DNA from: a virus
Taxonomy: Duplodnaviria > Heunggongvirae > Uroviricota > Caudoviricetes
Direction: 5' to 3' (one strand)
DNA length: 64,000 nucleotides
Virus record (IMG/VR): IMGVR_UViG_2648501802_000002
Positions 14,012 through 30,440 of the stretch are shown piece by piece (within the stretch, counting starts at the first letter, position 1; each line of letters starts with the position of its first letter). The notes under the pieces were generated by a model. It saw nothing but the letters and a program-made list of their open reading frames with translations. It did no database searches and was not told the DNA's origin. Both the position numbers and the translations under genes were made by a program.

Positions 14012-14032
14012 TATTGCTCTAATAATTCCATA

Positions 14033-14098
14033 TTTTTAAAACGTGATGTACACTCATCAAGTTTTTTATTAGAGCAATCTACAGGGTGCACTATGTGG
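14033..14098. promoter_or_regulatory. pair of C1-operator-like sites in inverted orientation
   Basis: 14033-14049 ATTGCTCTAATAATTCC and 14082-14098 TTTTTTATTAGAGCAAT, each with a perfect 13/14-nt core. Confidence 0.55.
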
Positions 14099-14312: not shown

Positions 14313-15665
14313 ATGAGCACTTCAGCACAAAACCAATCAATCGAAAATGTATCTATCCCTGATGTCCTGAATGCCGGTATCCCGGCCATTATCCAGAACA
14401 TCCGGGCCGCGCAACGCCGCGTTAGTTGTGATGACCTCACAGCACGTTTTTTTGATAATGCGGTTCAGTCAGCGGAGATGCTTCACGCACAGCTTATTGA
14501 TGTTTATAACGCAGAAGCTGATAGCCATAACTCCCTGGTAGATGCAGCTGAAAATATGCAGTTGGATCTCGGTCTGAAGGGTAAAGAAATTGAAGAGCTT
14601 CAGCTGCAAATTGAACATTTGAAACGCCAGCAACAGGACGCGATCGACGATGCGACGCATGACGCCAACCAGCGTGCTGATAATGCCGAACGTATAAGCA
14701 TTGAGCTGGAAACAAAACTCAATGAAATGACCGCGATGGTTGAACTGCGGAACTCACAGATTTCAACGCTAAAATCTCAATATAAAGAGATCATGAAACT
14801 TGATCCTTTTAACCTTGAGAAACGCTATAACAAAGCTAAAAGCGAGCGACAAGAACTGCGTAAGCAGGTCGCCGACCTTAACCAACAGCTCAAAAAAACT
14901 ATTAAAGATGCAAGCGAAGCGCGCGTGGCATTTGCTAATAAAAAAGCAGAGGTTACCGCGCTGGTTAATGAGAATGCCAAATTTGCGACGCTCAAGAAGG
15001 AAATGTATGGCATTACTGAGCGCCGTTTCCCTGCAAGCAAACTTCATCCGACGTTAGGGCAAATCTCCTTCTTCCCGCGCCTCCTGGCTTATGGGATCTC
15101 ATCGCCTAAAGAGTTCAATAACGAGCGTCCTTATATCGTTTCTAAGCTGGACTTTGCTTATCAGTTCTGCTGCGACATGGGCTATGCCATTGATATCCGA
15201 ATCAACGAATGGTTGATGCCAAACTTCCAGCCGTTGGCAATTTTCCGCGAGTTCCAGCCGGAAGGTTGGGTAGAGTTCTTCCATGAATTGATCTGTAAAG
15301 AGATGGAAAGCCGCCGCCCGGAATTGGTCCGTCGAGTTGAGTGGGCGCAAGAGGTTATGTTGGCAGATGCAGAGCTGCCGTTCGAACCGGAATTCATTGA
15401 TGATCTGGCAACTAAAGGGTTGCATACCCTGTTTGATGTGGTTACCCGCCGTCATGAGCAGTTGGTTGTCGAATTGGGTTTAGAGGAAACAGCGGCAAGA
15501 AGACTTCTCGATGTTTGCTATGCACGTAGCGATGCATGGGAAAAAGAGAACGGCGGCACTATTTTACGTTCGCTGATAGTTACAGTGTCACTTTTAATGC
15601 TGGTGGAGTGCGCCCACCAGCATTTTTTTCGTCCAATGAGGAGGGCATTTGAGTATTTTCAATAA
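14313..15665 (+). CDS. coiled-coil hypothetical protein
   Basis: 450-aa ORF with a long Q/E/K-rich heptad-like stretch. Confidence 0.35.
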   Translation: MSTSAQNQSIENVSIPDVLNAGIPAIIQNIRAAQRRVSCDDLTARFFDNAVQSAEMLHAQLIDVYNAEADSHNSLVDAAENMQLDLGLKGKEIEELQLQIEHLKRQQQDAIDDATHDANQRADNAERISIELETKLNEMTAMVELRNSQISTLKSQYKEIMKLDPFNLEKRYNKAKSERQELRKQVADLNQQLKKTIKDASEARVAFANKKAEVTALVNENAKFATLKKEMYGITERRFPASKLHPTLGQISFFPRLLAYGISSPKEFNNERPYIVSKLDFAYQFCCDMGYAIDIRINEWLMPNFQPLAIFREFQPEGWVEFFHELICKEMESRRPELVRRVEWAQEVMLADAELPFEPEFIDDLATKGLHTLFDVVTRRHEQLVVELGLEETAARRLLDVCYARSDAWEKENGGTILRSLIVTVSLLMLVECAHQHFFRPMRRAFEYFQ

Positions 15666-16155
15666 ACACGCACACCAGGAACGTCCGTATATCGTCATAG
15701 TCGATATTGATGGAACAATATCAGAGGCAACTGAAGACAGACTGCATTTGCTTCCGCCACCAGGTAAAGGTGCATTAACAAAGGACTGGAACGAGTTTAA
15801 TCTCGCCTGTGACACTGATACTCCCATAACTCCAGTTATTGATATTGTGCGCCAGTTATTTAACGTTTACACGGTCTGGTTTGTAACCGGGCGCTGTGAG
15901 ATCGCAAGGGATAAAACACGAGCCTGGCTGCGGAAGTACGTAACAAACGGGGCTGAGCCTTTGCTATCTATGCGTCCTGCCACCGATGACAGAAGTGACG
16001 GCCCAGCAAAGATTGATCTCCTTAAGAAAATTGGTCTAAGTAAAATCGCGTTCGCGCTGGAAGATAAGATTGAAGTGGCGCGTGTTTTCAGGAGGCACGG
16101 CGTGCTTACGTTAATGGTCAGGGAGTATGAAAATGCGCTTCTTCATCAGCAATAA
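15649..16155 (+). CDS. HAD-like phosphatase (Pap position)
   Basis: 168-aa ORF with N-terminal IVIVDIDGTI (HAD motif I). Confidence 0.45.
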   Translation: MSIFNKHAHQERPYIVIVDIDGTISEATEDRLHLLPPPGKGALTKDWNEFNLACDTDTPITPVIDIVRQLFNVYTVWFVTGRCEIARDKTRAWLRKYVTNGAEPLLSMRPATDDRSDGPAKIDLLKKIGLSKIAFALEDKIEVARVFRRHGVLTLMVREYENALLHQQ

Positions 16156-16171
16156 TTACTCTAATAAATCT
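16155..16171 (+). promoter_or_regulatory. C1-operator-like site (15/17) overlapping a candidate -35
   Basis: ATTACTCTAATAAATCT followed by TTGATT. Confidence 0.45.
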
Positions 16172-16253
16172 TGATTTTTAAAACAGAGAAAGTGAAAATA
16201 AAAACTTGCCGCAAGGCGCGGCATGTATCCAATCAATCACAGGAGCTGAAAAT

Positions 16254-16340
16254 ATGAACACGGCATTCAAAATCATTATGGCCGCGATCTATTTCTGGCT
16301 GTTCTCTATCACTTTTGGCGGCATCGTCGCGCATGGGTAA
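16254..16340 (+). CDS. 28-aa hydrophobic peptide
   Basis: Hand translation MNTAFKIIMAAIYFWLFSITFGGIVAHG; AGGAG RBS 8 nt upstream of ATG. Confidence 0.4.
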   Translation: MNTAFKIIMAAIYFWLFSITFGGIVAHG

Positions 16341-16375
16341 GGGGAGTATATTAGCCATTTGGAACCCCACGGTCT

Positions 16376-16403
16376 CTTGCGGGTTTAATTAAGAACCCGC
16401 AAG
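16376..16403. repeat. perfect 10-bp hairpin between the small peptide ORF and the hsdR 3' end
   Basis: CTTGCGGGTT-TAATTAAG-AACCCGCAAG; A-run follows on the + strand, so not a canonical terminator. Confidence 0.5.
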
Positions 16404-16419
16404 AAAAACACGAATTGGG

Positions 16420-19400
16420 CTATATTTTTCCGCCTACGCCTTTAAACTTCTCAATAAACGAGACGATTTTCTGGAAAACTGCCTGTTTTTTCGTTTTATA
16501 TTGCGGATTTAACGGACTAAGTTTTGGTAATGTTTCGTTTAATTCTGTGCCATTTTCGGTGGCGTATTCGCGTTTTAAAGACGTGCGAATATAGCGTTTT
16601 GCTGCATCTTCATTGAGATTTTCTTCTTTTATCAATGCTTCTGCTTCACGTTGCTGTTCGCGTTGAGCAAACGTAAAGAATGCGTCAATGATGCTGGCTT
16701 TGTCCGGTAAATCATCCAGGTTCGTTTGCTGAATAAAATCGACCACCAGGCCCTCTTTAGCACGGTTCCCTAGGCTTGAACGAATTAAGCGTTTGACCTC
16801 TTCGATCATTTCGCCCTTGCCTTTATTTTGTCTGTTGTGTTCGAAAATAAGTCCAAGGATATAATCCAGGTTTATTTCCTGAGACTTCAGCAAATCGACC
16901 TCAAAAACTACGTCATCCCAGTCAGTGGTTGATTTCTCTTTTTTCTCAGCTTCTTTCTCACGGCGCTGCCAGTCGCGAATATCGTTATAGGCAGAACGAT
17001 AATCCTGAATCTTGCGATCAGCAGGGAGACGAATTGTTTGCAATTCAGCGAACTTTTCATCATCCACATAATGTTCTGCTTTGAATTTTTCTACCGCAAC
17101 AGGATCGCTAAGATCGATTTGTTGCAGGGCTTTTAGCGTGGCAAATTCATCATAGTTTTGCAGGATGTTCTCGGCACGCAGGTATTCGCCAAACAGTTTA
17201 ACGAAGTCTTTCTTCTCTTTTTCACTTTCAATACTGGTAGGGTCAGGGAACCGTTGTTCCAGTTCTGAAACTACTGTCATGAAGCCGCGTTTAGCTTCAC
17301 CTGTAGCAGCATCAGTAAAGCCTTCCATATACTCTGTATAACTCTTTTCTAACACCACATTTTTGGTGTTTTTGTCACCAAACAGCGTTATGGCATCAAT
17401 AGTTGAGCGTTCCAGATCCCGGAAAGTGACGATATTACCGAAGGTTTTAGTTGCATCATAAATACGGTTGGTGCGGGAAAATGCCTGCATCAGGCCGTGA
17501 AAACGCAAGTTTTTATCGACGAATAGCGTGTTCAATGTTGGAGCATCGAAGCCGGTTAAAAACATCCCCACGACAATTAGCAGATCGATATCCTGATTTT
17601 TAACCCGCTGGGCTAAATCACGATAGTAGTTCTGAAAACCGTTACTGTCGGTGCTAAAGTTAGTTTTAAAATGGCTGTTATATTCACGAATTGCAGCGTC
17701 CAGAAACTCTTTAGCACTGCTGTCCATTGCGCTGGTATCAAAAGTTTCATCGGAAATTTCACCAATGGCATTTTGTTCTTCATTGGCGGCAAAGGAGAAG
17801 ATTGTCGCAATACGCAGCGGTTTATAGGTAGCCGATTTATTAGCGGCTTCTTCTTGTAACCGTTTAAACGTCGCATAATAGGCTTTCGCGGCATCCACGC
17901 TGCTCACTGCCAACATAGCATTAAAACCTTTTGAGCCAGGGAAGGTACGGTGAGTTTTCTGGCGGAAATTATTCAGAATATATTGCGTGATTTCCTGAAT
18001 ACGCATAGGATGAAGAAACGCCTGCTGATTTTCAGCCGCACTTAGTTTTTTCTCGTCAGTTTCTGTCTCTAAAGACTTAAACTGTGGCCGCACATCGTTG
18101 TAGTCCACCTTGAATTTGAGCACTTTTTCGTCACGAATCGCATCGGTAATTACATACGAATGCAATTCACGACCAAATACGCTGGCGGTTGTTTCTGAGC
18201 CTAAGGCGTTTTCCGGGAAAATAGGGGTGCCGGTAAAACCAAACTGATAATAGCGTTTGAATTTCTTCTTCAGGTTTTTCTGCGCTTCTCCAAACTGGCT
18301 GCGGTGGCATTCATCAAATATGAACACTACTTGCTGATTATATACAGGCAGGTCGCTTTCTGCTTTCATCAGGTTATTGAGTTTCTGAATAGTAGTGACG
18401 ATAATTTTGTTATCGTCCTTATCCAGATTTCGTTTAAGGCCTGCGGTATTTTCCGAGCCGTTGACGCTGTCTGGCGAAAAACGCTGATATTCCTTCATGG
18501 TCTGGTAATCGAGGTCTTTTCTGTCGACCACAAAGAAGACTTTATCAATAAAGTCCAGCTCTGTTGCCAGACGCGCGGCTTTAAAGCTGGTAAGGGTTTT
18601 ACCAGAACCGGTAGTGTGCCAGATAAAGCCACCGCTTTCGGGGTTAGACCAGTTTTTCGCTTTATAGGAGCTGTTGATTTTCCATAAGATTCGTTCGGTG
18701 GCGGCAATCTGGTACGGTCGCATCACCAGTAGCGTCTGACTACTGTCAAAAACGCTGTAGTTCACCAGAACATTCAGCAGAGTATGTTTCTGGAAAAAGG
18801 TAGCGGTAAAGTCTTTGAGGTCTTTAATCAGCGTGTTGTCTGATTTCGCCCAGTTCATGGTGAAGTCAAAACTGTTTTTATCGCGCTTTGTCGTGTTGGC
18901 AAAATAACGGGTATCGGTGCCGTTAGAAATGACAAACAGTTGCAGATACTTAAACAGGGAATTTTCGCTGTTAAAACTCTCTTTACTGTAACGATGTATC
19001 TGGTTGAAAGCCTCACGAATCGCCACCCCGCGTTTTTTTAGTTCGATTTGCACCAGCGGTAAACCATTAACCAGGATCGTGACGTCATAACGGTTAGCAT
19101 GAGAACCCGTCTGTTCAAACTGCTGGATAATCTGCACCTTATTGCGCATGAGATTCTTTTTATCTATCAAATAGATGTTCTCAAGACGCTCGTCATCAAA
19201 AATAAAGTCGCAAATATAGTCGATATGGATTTTACGGGTCTTATCCAGAATGCCATCACTCGGGTTGTCCAGATACTGCTCCGTGAAACGCCGCCATTCG
19301 CTGTCATTAAACACCACACCATTGAGGTTCTGAAGCTGTTCCCGAACGTTGGCCAGCATCGCCGACTGTGATTTTACGGGTATAAATTCATAGCCCTGAT

Positions 19401-19536
19401 TTCGCAGGTCCTGAATCAGTTCCCGTTCCAGGTCCGATTCACTCTGATAGCTGTCGCCTGTTTGCTCAGCTTTGATGTACTTATCAAGAACGATAAAGTT
19501 ATTGGATTCAGCAATGGTGTGTGTCTGATGAGTCAT
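16420..19536 (-). CDS. hsdR: Type I restriction enzyme R subunit
   Basis: 1038-aa ORF with helicase motifs [12 protein letters not shown] and FDECHRSQ; downstream of hsdM-hsdS. Confidence 0.9.
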
Positions 19537-19658
19537 AGCGCATCCTTTGTGCCGTCTGGCAAGGGCCGGAAGGGGGTTAAGGGTGACTTCCAGCGTGTAA
19601 AAAAATAGCCTATATACTGACCGGGTGTTAAGGTGGCCCGGTCGGTAGCAATGGTCAA

Positions 19659-20870
19659 TTAATTACTGACAGTTTCAGGTTTCGGGAAACTGAACAGTAA
19701 ATCACGGTAGTACTCGTATTGTTTCTGGCGCAACTCGATTTCACGCGGGAGACCTTCGGTGATGGAGTTGGTCAGGGTGTCGAACTTATCGAGGATAAAG
19801 GCAATTTTTTGTTGCTCATCAATCGATGGTAAAGGAATAGATAAACCATCAATGTTATTTGCTTTAAGATAACCTTGCCCTGAATTGTTTTTTACTGACT
19901 TAAAGTAAAATTTCATTCTTGGTGAGTCGAAGAAATGCAGAAAATATCTAGGGTGAAGTAATTCCTCATTCAACCTGATTAGGTACATGTTTTGACCGTA
20001 AAAATCAGGATCGAGACATTTTACTCGAGCAATCTCACCAATAGTACCAATCATGCTTATAAGAAAGTCACCTTTCAAGATCGGTCTATTTTTGGAGATG
20101 CTCAAAAAATCGTCCCGGGAAATATGCTTAACTCTTTCAAAATCGATGTTCCCACCACTAATATTCTTTGAAGTGACATATGGAATTTCACCATTATCAT
20201 CAAACTTCGGAGTTGCGGGCATAATCCAAAATTTATCTACTAGCACCTCCTCCAAAGTCTTCCACTCAACCTCACCCTCTTTAAAACTCAACAACTGGTC
20301 GCGATAATAGTTGTACTGTTTTTTACGCATGTTAAGCTCAGCGGTAAGCTCAGCGGTAAGTGCAGTAAATTTATCCAGAATCCGAACGATTTCAGACTGG
20401 ATGGCAAGGGATTTTTCCGGATTATCCGGGCAGGGGATTGGGATTTTTTTTTGAGAATAATTACTAATCCATTGGCGTTTATGGTCTCCCTCTGCGAATT
20501 CACTTGGTAATGTATTGAGCCAATAGTAAACATATTTCAGTAAGGTTTTATTATTATCACATGATGTAACCATTTTCATGGCCGATGATTTTGCCTTAAA
20601 GTCAAAATCCACCCATTTATTAGCGGTGGTGAAATCATCAAAAATTATTACAGGTGCCTTTGATGCCTGGTAAATACCATGAGTCTCATTTGTGTATCCA
20701 AGAATAAATGTTTTTCCGGCAGTAAGAACCGGTATGGTATATGTGTCGTGATAATCTTTTGCTTTTACCAAATACTTTGTTGGCTGTTCATATTTGGTTA
20801 TTTCCCCCAATGGCAACCACTCAACTTCAACCCCATCCAGCAATTTTTCCAGATAACTCAACTCGCTCAT
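19659..20870 (-). CDS. hsdS: Type I restriction-modification S subunit, EcoR124-like central region
   Basis: 403-aa ORF; central ...[23 protein letters not shown]; 4-nt overlap with hsdM. Confidence 0.85.
20335..20358 (-). repeat. 12-bp tandem repeat (2 copies) encoding TAEL-TAEL in hsdS
   Basis: AGCTCAGCGGTA twice on the + strand, then a degenerate third unit. Confidence 0.85.
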
Positions 20871-22429
20871 TTCTGCACCTCGCAGCCTTCAATTTCAGCC
20901 ACAATCGCATCAATATCTTTACGCAACTGGTCGATTTTGCTGACCGTGGTTTTCAGCTCAGCATTTAGCTCAGCAATATCGATAGTTTCGCGGTTATCTT
21001 TCACTTCTACATAGCTGCTCACTGACAGGTTATAGTCATTCGCGACAACGGCCTCAAACGCGACAGATTTTGCCAGATGGGCAACATCTTCCTTGCTGGA
21101 AAATACCTGCATAATTTTTTCGATATGGGCATCGGTCAGGATGTTGTTGTTAGTCTCTTTTTTGAACAGTTCGCTGGCGTCAATAAACTGAACTTTGGTA
21201 TCCGTTTTATGTTTAGACAGCACCAGAATATTTACGGCAATGGTGGTGCCAAAGAACAGGTTCGGTGCCAGTGAAATCACGGTTTCGACATAGTTATTGT
21301 CAACCAGATACTGACGGATTTTCTGCTCCGCTCCGCCACGGTAAAAAATGCCCGGGAAGCAGACAATCGCAGCACGACCTTTGGCAGAAAGATAGTTCAG
21401 CGCATGTAATACAAACGCAAAGTCAGCTTTGGATTTGGGGGCCAGAACGCCAGCCGGGGCAAAACGTTCATCGTTAATCAGCGTCGGGTCATCGCTGCCA
21501 ATCCATTTCACCGAATACGGCGGGTTAGAAACGATGGCATCAAACGGTTTTTCATCTCTGAAGTGCGGCTCAGTCAGTGTATTACCCAGCTTGATATCAA
21601 ACTTGTCGTAGTTGATGTTGTGCAAAAACATGTTCATACGCGCCAGGTTATAGGTCGTATGGTTGATCTCCTGACCAAAAAAGCCTTCTTCGATGATATG
21701 GTCATCAAACTGTTTTTTAGCCTGCAACAACAGCGAACCGGAACCTGCTGCCGGGTCGTAGATTTTGTTAACGTGGGTCTGGCCGTGCATTGCCAGTTGT
21801 GCAATCAGCTTAGAGACGTGCTGCGGTGTAAAGAACTCGCCGCCGGACTTACCGGCATTCGCCGCATAGTTAGAAATCAGGAACTCATAGGCATCACCGA
21901 ACAGGTCAATCTGATGTTCGTTGAAGTCACCAAGGTTTAACCCTTCAACCCCTTTCAGAACCGCAGCCAGGCGGGCATTTTTATCCTTAACGGTGTTACC
22001 CAGGCGGTTACTGGTGGTATCGAAATCAGCAAACAAACCTTTGATGTCAGCTTCTGAAGGATAACCGTAAGCAGAACTTTCGATAGCAACGAAGATGCTG
22101 TTTAAATCTGCATTCAGTCTGTCATTGGTATTTGCTTTCGCCGCTACGTTGCAGAAAAGCTGACTTGGGTAGATGAAGTAGCCTTTGGTTTTGATGGCAT
22201 CGTCTTTAATGTCATCAGTAATTACGCTGTCATCCAGTTTCGCATAACAGATACTGCCATCACCGGCTTCAATATAGCTGGAAAAATTTTCGCTGATAAA
22301 ACGGTAGAAAAGTGCGCCCAGAACGTATTGCTTAAAATCCCATCCATCGACCGAACCCCTGACATCGTTAGCAATTTGCCAGATTTGACGATGAAGCTCT
22401 GCACGTTGTTGAATACTTGTCATTTTCAT
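20867..22429 (-). CDS. hsdM: Type I restriction-modification M subunit (N6-adenine methyltransferase)
   Basis: 520-aa ORF with NPPY motif in [14 protein letters not shown]. Confidence 0.9.
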
Positions 22430-22574
22430 CCACTTATTTCAGGCTTATGTAATTGGATGTGATTCTACAACAACTTGGTGGCTTTAACAGTTCGGACATT
22501 AGGCTATGAATGACCTGCCTAGAGTTTTGTTAAGCCGCAAAGTGCTGGCGCTTTATGCCTGTGAAGTTTATAAT

Positions 22575-22597
22575 TGTGTACACATAACGAGTACACG
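22575..22597 (+). promoter_or_regulatory. phd-doc promoter/operator palindromes
   Basis: TGTGTACACA perfect palindrome at 22575-22584 and GAGTACACG half-site just upstream of phd. Confidence 0.55.
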
Positions 22598-22605
22598 AGG
22601 TGTTT

Positions 22606-29478: not shown

Positions 29479-30330
29479 TTATTGCGCGCTTTCGGGGTTG
29501 TCGTTTACTGGCTGCCCCTTCTTGGTTTTACGGCTGCGCGTAACTGATGCGGCTGACTTAACCTTTTTCTCTTCGCGAGTGATGGCAATTTGTTTTTTTA
29601 CATTTTCAATATCTGCCAGGCGATATATTTTTGCTTGCGGCCAGCGGTCGCAGATGATCGGTTCTATAGAGTCATAAAGGCTAAATTTTGCTTTCTCGAA
29701 TTCACCGTTGATGATGATTCCATCACGGAGAGTTTCATCGCAGATAAACACGCCACACAGCGGTACATGGTAACTAACTGATTTACCATCATTGTAGTTA
29801 GGGCTACTGGAGATGTAGTGGACGCGCAGCATTGTTTCGCTAAAGCCGTGTACACGCATACGGAATTTTTCATCCTCCGGGTACTGCCTCATTAGCTCTT
29901 TTGTTGCTTCCAGGTTCTCTATGTATTTCGCACTGTGCTCATTGATCCCCGCGCTTTTTTGGATGCGAATGTCCTTATCAATCAGATGAATAATGCGGCC
30001 AGCGGTCATGTTGACGCTGTTCACAGCTTCTGTCTGATAAGTTGTAACCTTGCGCACACCGCGAAGGATGTTAGGCACTGGATATAAAATAGTCTTTGGG
30101 ATATTGAGGTCTGGGTACTGTTCCAGTTCCCGCGCCATTAAAGTCCATTTATCAATTTCAGCCTGAATGCTGTCAGTTTCTTTGAACGGTAGAACGACAA
30201 CCGGGCGTACAGGACGACCGTCGCTGGCTGTATCAACGTGTTGGGCGCGTGCAACAGCTTTTTTTAGAAAGAGATCCCTGAAGCTGACGAACTCCTGGTA
30301 CAGTTGTTCGCCGTAGACATAATTTATCAT
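29479..30330 (-). CDS. c1: C1 repressor of lysogeny
   Basis: 283-aa ORF, size and N-terminus as remembered for P1 C1; coi directly upstream; operator-like sites flank the operon. Confidence 0.75.
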   Translation of the reverse strand: MINYVYGEQLYQEFVSFRDLFLKKAVARAQHVDTASDGRPVRPVVVLPFKETDSIQAEIDKWTLMARELEQYPDLNIPKTILYPVPNILRGVRKVTTYQTEAVNSVNMTAGRIIHLIDKDIRIQKSAGINEHSAKYIENLEATKELMRQYPEDEKFRMRVHGFSETMLRVHYISSSPNYNDGKSVSYHVPLCGVFICDETLRDGIIINGEFEKAKFSLYDSIEPIICDRWPQAKIYRLADIENVKKQIAITREEKKVKSAASVTRSRKTKKGQPVNDNPESAQ

Positions 30331-30423: not shown

Positions 30424-30440
30424 TAGATTTATTAGTGCAT
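30424..30440 (-). promoter_or_regulatory. C1-operator-like site (14/17) between coi and c1
   Basis: AGATTTATTAGTGCATT. Confidence 0.4.

Follow-up and report, generated by a model that had tools for sequence, protein, structure and literature searches.

In phage P1 (AF234172), the monovalent C1-controlled operator OpmgT, formerly Op88, and the promoter PpmgT precede the genes pmgT-pmgU-pmgV, and phage P7 carries a related operon behind a homologous operator that its record labels Op(hea). The segment from pmgT to humD corresponds to the published 'variable region 8' of P1-like phage-plasmids, which is hypervariable (PMC9603915), and CRISPR interference (CRISPRi) has shown pmgT and its neighbours, including pap, to be non-essential for plaque formation (PMC10695390). 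Here we analyze a 64,000-nucleotide (nt) stretch of the IMG/VR virus record IMGVR_UViG_2648501802_000002, hereafter the window, and specifically positions 16155-16403, whose flanking genes identify the window as a P1-like phage-plasmid. The locus resembles the P1 and P7 operons in operator, promoter, leader, a 28-codon open reading frame (ORF) (97-98% identity) and its slot after pap, and differs from them in that pmgT-humD is replaced by convergent hsdRSM genes. The 28-codon ORF is unannotated in the reference P1 and P7 records, and the few GenBank records that include it label it as a hypothetical or membrane protein. The regulatory parts of this locus are already known; what is new, and modest, is the finding that the ORF belongs to a conserved gene family whose 5' stem-loop covaries.

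Comparison of the ORF with distant P1-like elements provides the central evidence that it is a gene. A tblastn search with Pap identified one phage at 73% identity, Cronobacter phage JK004, in which pap is followed, in order, by the operator ATTGCTCTAATAAATAT, the hexamers TTGTTT and AATAAT separated by 17 nt, a GC-rich stem-loop, the motif CCAATCAATCACCGGAGCC and an ORF of 53 amino acids (aa), MHLIFKLAITAFYAWMLTVVITSFKPDANMK..., the stop of which overlaps the start of the following gene. In the JK004 record, this ORF appears only in a shorter form of 38 aa, from an internal start. Searching with the JK004 53-aa protein revealed two further 53-aa lineages (L171 and L172/L173), on contigs of 17-94 kb and each directly after HAD_PNKP (pap), and a profile search of 1.84 billion representative proteins yielded eight members in total, all of this kind. 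Among these eight, a 48-aa form, MNTAFKLAMAAFYFWIFCIAFNGLVKAAPTL..., bridges the P1 and JK004 types, and its contig (L174) presents the same control region following pmgS without pap. A scan of genome contigs with Pap returned just two near-identical loci, and the examined half of phage D6 (MF356679) had no pap in such an arrangement and so offered nothing to compare.

The six proteins compared align without gaps over their first 28 residues, with M1, K6, A11 and W15 invariant and hydrophobicity maintained. Pairwise Nei-Gojobori ratios of non-synonymous to synonymous divergence (dN/dS) lie between 0.22 and 0.43 in the frame of the ORF, whereas the other two frames show no synonymous excess. 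Synonymous sites are saturated between lineages (proportion of synonymous differences, pS, 0.65-0.78), and non-synonymous divergence is lower in this frame only. The start context AATATG and the Shine-Dalgarno (SD) sequence also persist across the diverged lineages, and the string CAATCA[CT][ACT]GGAGC is common to all five lineages despite diverged neighbouring sequence. Because of these syntenic orthologues in distant P1-like phages and the frame-specific dN/dS, comparative sequence evidence establishes the ORF as a protein-coding gene under purifying selection.

The longer orthologues, of 48-53 aa (L170, 4587-4748; L171, 1792-1953; L172, 4001-4162; L174, 4001-4147), carry hydrophilic C-terminal tails, with the motif SYDCDQ shared by the 53-aa forms. 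They always precede a gene of 104-105 aa, with stop and start overlapping, and in L172 this downstream gene has a weak match to MarR_2. The P1-lineage peptide is devoid of such a tail and ends 2-3 residues after the helix. We propose that the window ORF, the JK004 53-aa ORF and proteins P0023-P0026 make up a new family of P1-like first-cistron small membrane proteins, all of which are located downstream of a C1-type operator in the same position after pap or pmgS, present the pattern M-x4-K-x4-A-x3-W in a hydrophobic helix and evolve under purifying selection.

In the window, the gene spans 16254-16340 on the + strand, starting with ATG at 16254, and its 28-aa product, MNTAFKIIMAAIYFWLFSITFGGIVAHG, is a predicted single-helix hydrophobic peptide with about 20 consecutive hydrophobic residues. 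It is preceded by a conserved leader containing the SD, CCAATCAATCACAGGAGC (16229-16246, + strand), which occurs a single time in the window and has AGGAG at 16241-16245, 8 nt ahead of the ATG. The strong AGGAG ribosome-binding site (RBS) and 28-codon ORF proposed by the original prediction are hence both present, and the conservation that it expected of such a gene is borne out by close relatives and by orthologues in four more distant lineages. To assemble the close relatives, IMG/VR, metagenomes and reference records were searched with the operator or the untranslated leader as anchor, which gave 155 copies of the ORF. The ORF is intact in 154 of the 155, without indel or premature stop, the one other copy being broken by an insertion, and the intact ORFs are free of indels whereas the leader has them. 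A word-indexed protein search using a 44-aa extended ORF as query retrieved only relatives at 93% identity or higher.

Variation among these close relatives is limited. All of the common polymorphisms in a first sample of 69 relatives are third-position changes without effect on the amino acid (16289, 16325 and the three-allele site 16331), and the set of 154 copies presents two further common variants, both of which change the amino acid (A10T and G23S). Nucleotide diversity (pi) is 0.017 in the ORF, 0.019 in the untranslated leader and 0.046 in pap, and a comparison of common with rare variants in the P1 lineage, a weak population test, gave a Fisher p of 0.16. On its own, the P1 lineage is too shallow to decide coding status, and the case rests on the distant lineages described above.

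The control region upstream of the gene is conserved together with it. The operator-like 17-mer that the original prediction had noticed at the -35 element turned out to be the known Op88/OpmgT of P1, abutting the promoter P1pmgT. This operator, ATTACTCTAATAAATCT (16155-16171, + strand), is the homologue of the P1 protein_bind feature 'monovalent C1-controlled operator OpmgT; former Op88'. It is a 17-base-pair (bp) asymmetric site that agrees with the C1 consensus ATTGCTCTAATAAATTT at 15 of 17 positions, and its first base is the last base of the pap stop codon. With up to three mismatches allowed, the window contains 13 matches to the consensus where chance would give 0.28. The operator is kept in JK004 and L171-L174 as ATTG[CT]TCTAATAAATAT. 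It shares its last base with the start of the -35 element, TTGATT (16171-16176), of the predicted sigma-70 promoter P1pmgT (16171-16199, + strand), which continues with a 17-nt spacer and the -10 element GAAAAT (16194-16199). P1pmgT is annotated as predicted in P1 and scores below the threshold of a generic promoter scan, and its geometry, TTG[AT]TT, 17 nt and NANAAT, recurs in JK004, L171, L172 and L174 with spacers of varying sequence. A weaker predicted promoter annotated in P1, P2pmgT, corresponds to 16156-16184 (+ strand) and has its -35 within the operator. The operator itself is established, and repression by C1 is likely to extend to the copy in the window, where transcription would start near the stem-loop described below.

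The window also contains a 283-aa ORF (29479-30330, - strand) at the position of P1 c1, downstream of ORFs sized as pacA and pacB, which is by its position a putative c1; operator-like sites at 30425 and 30889 flank this ORF. Among the 13 operator-like 17-mers we further observed a facing pair upstream of pmgS (14013-14029 on the + strand and 14062-14078 on the - strand), as well as a perfect consensus operator at 433-449, with which a second site, at 444-460, overlaps.

The transcript is predicted to begin with a stem-loop (16205-16225, + strand), which forms 8 bp in P1 (CATGCCGC/GCGGCATG) and 6 bp in the window, pairing 16207-16212 with 16218-16223. In JK004, L171, L172 and L174 the stem-loop begins 5-8 nt past the -10 element, and it folds locally in all six lineages tested. 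The stem sequences are unrelated across lineages, with GGCCGC/GCGGCC in JK004, GGCAGTCAC/GTGACTGCC in L171 and AGGCCAC/GTGGCCT in L174. Across the four lineages other than P1, 100% of stem cells pair and 3 of the 6 pairs present compensatory double changes, whereas slid controls pair at 17-42%. The P1-lineage hairpin also scores as an intrinsic terminator on the minus strand, but the T run that this would involve is absent in JK004, L171, L172 and L174. Moreover, a C-to-T change at 16212 (11 P1-type copies) and a G.T in L172 allow a G.U wobble only in + strand RNA. The lack of conservation of the T run and the fit of the wobbles to the + strand indicate that the conserved role of the stem-loop is on that strand, where its simplest role would be that of a stabilizing structure at the 5' end of the mRNA. 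Rfam searches of the region returned only sub-threshold noise and no family match. In short leader folds of the sequences of six lineages, the SD and start codon are unpaired.

Downstream of the gene, alignment with P1 and P7 locates a junction at 16341-16345, with backbone homology stopping at 16344, four bases past the stop of the ORF (TAAGGGG). Accordingly, window positions 16100-16344 are 97-98% identical to phages P1, P7, SJ46 and RCS47, and the whole of 16100-16460 recurs at 98-100% identity in 257 plasmid records as well as in phages phi456 and vB_EcoM-673R5. In P1 and P7, pmgT or upf86.8 begins 10 nt after the ORF and has its SD overlapping the ORF stop, which makes the ORF an unannotated first cistron of the C1-controlled pmgT/hea operon. 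Among the collected copies, the downstream context is of pmgT type in 115, of hsd type in 38 and of another type in 2. The window belongs to the hsd type, with a convergent cassette (16420-22429, - strand) made up of hsdR (16420-19536), hsdS (19659-20870) and hsdM (20867-22429) replacing P1 pmgT through humD. The match of its HsdR to the EcoR124I/II HsdR structures across all 1038 residues (2289 bits) assigns the cassette to type IC. Phage phi456 presents the same layout as the window (pap, small ORF, hsdR/S/M and phd/doc), with phd and doc annotated directly after the cassette. As a side observation, hsdM, which starts at 22429 on the minus strand, points away from phd (as placed by the phi456 annotation), with about 180 bp between the two (region 22430-22600).

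The original prediction had closed the peptide gene with a perfect 10-bp hairpin, packaged tightly against the ORF. A hairpin is indeed present, with 11 perfect base pairs and an 8-nt loop (TCTTGCGGGTT/AACCCGCAAGA, 16375-16404; 10-bp core 16376-16403), but it belongs to the hsd cassette, as part of the structure 3' of hsdR, and not to the peptide gene, because on the alignment it lies beyond the end of P1 homology at 16344. It is located 15 nt past the hsdR stop and accompanies 34 of the 38 hsd-type copies; pmgT-type relatives lack it, as do P1 and P7, where the next gene follows at 10 nt, and the proposed packaging with a terminator finds no support. We rejected the hairpin as terminator of the peptide gene on these grounds and for its having no U tract on either strand; the terminator scan did not call it, and it is predicted to be stable in folds of both strands. 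In the hsdR transcript the U run of the hairpin comes 5', and in the opposite transcript an A run comes 3', so that on neither strand does it form a canonical terminator. Past hsdR, a canonical minus-strand terminator is first reached at the P1-backbone hairpin, 16223-16207, and an hsdR 3' untranslated region extending that far would be antisense to the small ORF.

The hsd cassette also connects the locus to the EcoR124I and EcoDXXI type IC plasmid loci, the window HsdR being essentially identical to EcoR124I HsdR. Notes in the P1 record state that P1 84263-84482 matches sequence downstream of the EcoDXXI hsd locus and of hsdR of R124/3. We find that this EcoDXXI/R124 flank is the P1 module of Op88 and small ORF, of which IncF plasmids retain only the last 85 bp, cut by IS1. 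In about 280 PLSDB plasmids, most of them conjugative IncF plasmids, the match is confined to window positions 16261-16345 and lies beside an EcoR124-type hsdR. In one of them, pZH193 (NZ_CP014498; L003, 5249-6160), the IS1 end abuts codon 3 of the ORF, and the post-stop cassette sequence GGGGAGTATATTAGCCATTTGGAACCCCAC follows the ORF remnant beside hsdR, as in the window. This fossil of the ORF in IncF hsd loci explains the old P1-record notes and points to a passage of the IncF type IC restriction cassettes through a P1-like element.

Together, these results lead us to favour, with a probability of roughly 0.6, an explanation in which the interval is the conserved left edge of variable region 8, composed of a C1 operator, PpmgT, a stem-loop, an open leader and a gene for an inner-membrane peptide with an accessory role. 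In a lysogen, C1 bound at 16155-16171 would hold the promoter off. Once C1 is inactivated, an mRNA starting with the stem-loop would be made, the peptide would be translated and its single helix would insert in the membrane, probably with its N-terminus in and its C-terminus out, as suggested by the invariant Lys6 and by the acidic tails of the longer orthologues. Most likely the peptide would play a non-essential accessory part early in lytic growth, by binding a membrane protein or modifying the envelope in another way. Its gene opens the pmgT (or hea) operon in P1 and P7, and in the window the rest of the operon has been swapped for EcoR124-type hsdRSM, with the gene left alone.

A number of enterobacterial proteins provide a precedent for such a role. 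KdpF, AcrZ, MgtS, PmrR and MgrB are single-helix inner-membrane regulators of less than 50 aa, with a short charged N-terminus and a strong SD; the literature describes MgrB, and likewise MgtR, in this way. By analogy, the window peptide may be likened to them in length, helix, charged N-terminus and SD, but it is encoded by a phage, lies under repressor control and has no sequence relationship with any of them.

Several observations weigh against this explanation. In the control region, the window operator presents a rare A for G at position 4 (2 of 69 relatives), and an A-to-T change at 16206 (1 of 69) shortens the stem from 8 to 6 bp, weakening the stem-loop. In longer mRNA folds, the probability of the SD being unpaired is low (0.17-0.32). 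The P1 lineage taken alone shows 6 synonymous and 10 non-synonymous variants, which is not significantly off neutral. Regarding mode of action, Pfam, PHROGs, NCBIfam and PADLOC returned no significant match for the peptide and no characterized homologue, and the literature searched for pmgT, Op88 and P1 small ORFs offered no transcript, ribosome-footprint or protein data on the ORF. Lastly, the peptide is off consensus in 14 of 38 hsd-context copies (A10T, G23S, G28R and others), versus 4 of 115 in the pmgT context. This excess could be due to relaxed constraint after operon loss or to a clade effect, and because of it the value of the peptide may depend on the lost downstream genes.

These variants are also compatible with a possible, if somewhat doubtful, alternative in which the ORF is a translated leader or coupling device, its translation opening the mRNA, blocking Rho and feeding ribosomes to the cargo gene, with the peptide itself of little importance and the copy in the window a relic. 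In favour of this, the ORF sits exactly at the variable cargo boundary, its stop in every lineage overlaps or abuts the following start, through ATGA in JK004, TGATG in L174 and, in P1 and P7, TAA plus 10 nt with the stop lying under the SD, and the C-terminal tails are unconserved or absent. The coding signal argues in the opposite direction, with its frame-specific synonymous excess and with K6, A11 and W15 invariant and hydrophobicity kept over some 20 residues between lineages with saturated synonymous sites, and all 38 hsd-context copies are intact and keep start, SD and stop. The locus does not have the layout of an attenuation leader either, with an ORF-to-next-gene gap of 10 nt in P1 and P7, overlapping genes in JK004 and L174, and no + strand terminator found; specifically, no + strand intrinsic terminator was called between the ORF and position 17000.

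The original prediction had likened the peptide to small membrane toxins and lysis modulators, and a type I-like toxin or lysis-timing modulator that depolarizes or permeabilizes the membrane after release from C1 would account for some of its features. In size and hydrophobicity the peptide is comparable to TisB, ShoB, DinQ and Ibs-type peptides. As a small hydrophobic membrane peptide whose transcription is held by a repressor, in the way of LexA-controlled tisB and dinQ, it is similar to the E. coli type I toxins (TisB, DinQ, ShoB, Ibs, Ldr and Hok), and the minus-strand terminator-like hairpin of the P1 lineage, just upstream of the SD, could mark the end of an antisense RNA. The remaining evidence makes this reading unlikely. 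An antisense RNA, which the original prediction had suggested looking for, found no support: no minus-strand promoter-like site was detected in 15600-17000, in or after the ORF, although consensus scans are weak evidence, and no antisense or divergent small RNA antitoxin had an Rfam match. We also discarded a type I toxin architecture built on the minus-strand terminator-like hairpin, given the unconserved T run and the fit of the wobbles to + strand RNA only. Type I toxin mRNAs typically being inert in their primary form, a sequestered SD and a fold-back were looked for. The RBS is open in the short folds of six lineages, with the low values cited above in longer folds, and the minimum free energy fold of the window RNA switches to a long-range 5'-3' pairing that is gone in the P1 and JK004 sequences. 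A hok-like fold-back of the window RNA was rejected, since it forms only with the A-to-T change that the window carries at 16206 and does not appear for P1 or JK004; no conserved fold-back was detected.

The peptide itself departs from toxins and holins as well. It presents no charged or amphipathic face, such as that of a charged amphipathic helix, and the P1-lineage form stops 2-3 residues past the helix, without the charged C-terminal cytoplasmic tail of holins. Its neighbours are pap and either pmgT or hsdR, the P1 lysis genes not being adjacent, and no holin matches were obtained in PHROGs or Pfam, in line with the absence of database matches noted above. Furthermore, CRISPRi of the neighbouring pap and pmgT leaves plaquing unaffected (PMC10695390).

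The favoured inner-membrane peptide gene does not preclude a further effect of its promoter in this particular arrangement. In the window, the 28-codon ORF is the only gene behind the promoter before the convergent hsdR, so that induced transcription may run antisense into hsdR unless Rho stops it. It is conceivable, but very unlikely, that the C1-gated promoter acts in this manner as an off-switch for type IC restriction, the antisense run lowering HsdR by transcriptional collision or antisense RNA on induction; if true, the restriction subunit would be reduced while the phage genome replicates faster than methylation. Least credible of all is a chance ORF in a conserved 5' untranslated leader constrained only at the RNA or DNA level, as the similar diversity of ORF and leader, both below that of pap, and the omission of the ORF from the curated P1 and P7 records might suggest, for the frame, the AATATG start context and the SD persist at saturated synonymous sites with lower non-synonymous divergence in this frame only, and the indels present in the leader are missing from the ORF.

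The surrounding genes follow the P1 backbone. Upstream, a Ppp-like phosphatase, pmgS and pap precede the interval. The last gene ahead of the control region, pap (15649-16155, + strand), is a 168-aa ORF encoding a HAD-family phosphatase with 96-98% identity to Pap of P1, P7 and SJ46, and bears this name in the P1 record. Downstream, the minus-strand hsdR/hsdS/hsdM genes are followed by ORFs sized as lpa, pacA, pacB and c1, in the P1 order.

These findings do not overturn the current understanding of P1-like elements, and their value lies in annotation and in the generation of hypotheses. Although P1 is among the best-studied phages and serves as a standard tool of genetics, the gene is missing from its reference annotation. 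P1-like phage-plasmids spread resistance and defence genes, and a conserved, repressor-controlled first cistron at the edge where cargo is exchanged is a candidate for an early, membrane-acting function. The combination of promoter, stem-loop, leader and small ORF may, in addition, serve these elements as a "landing pad" for the expression of inserted cargo.

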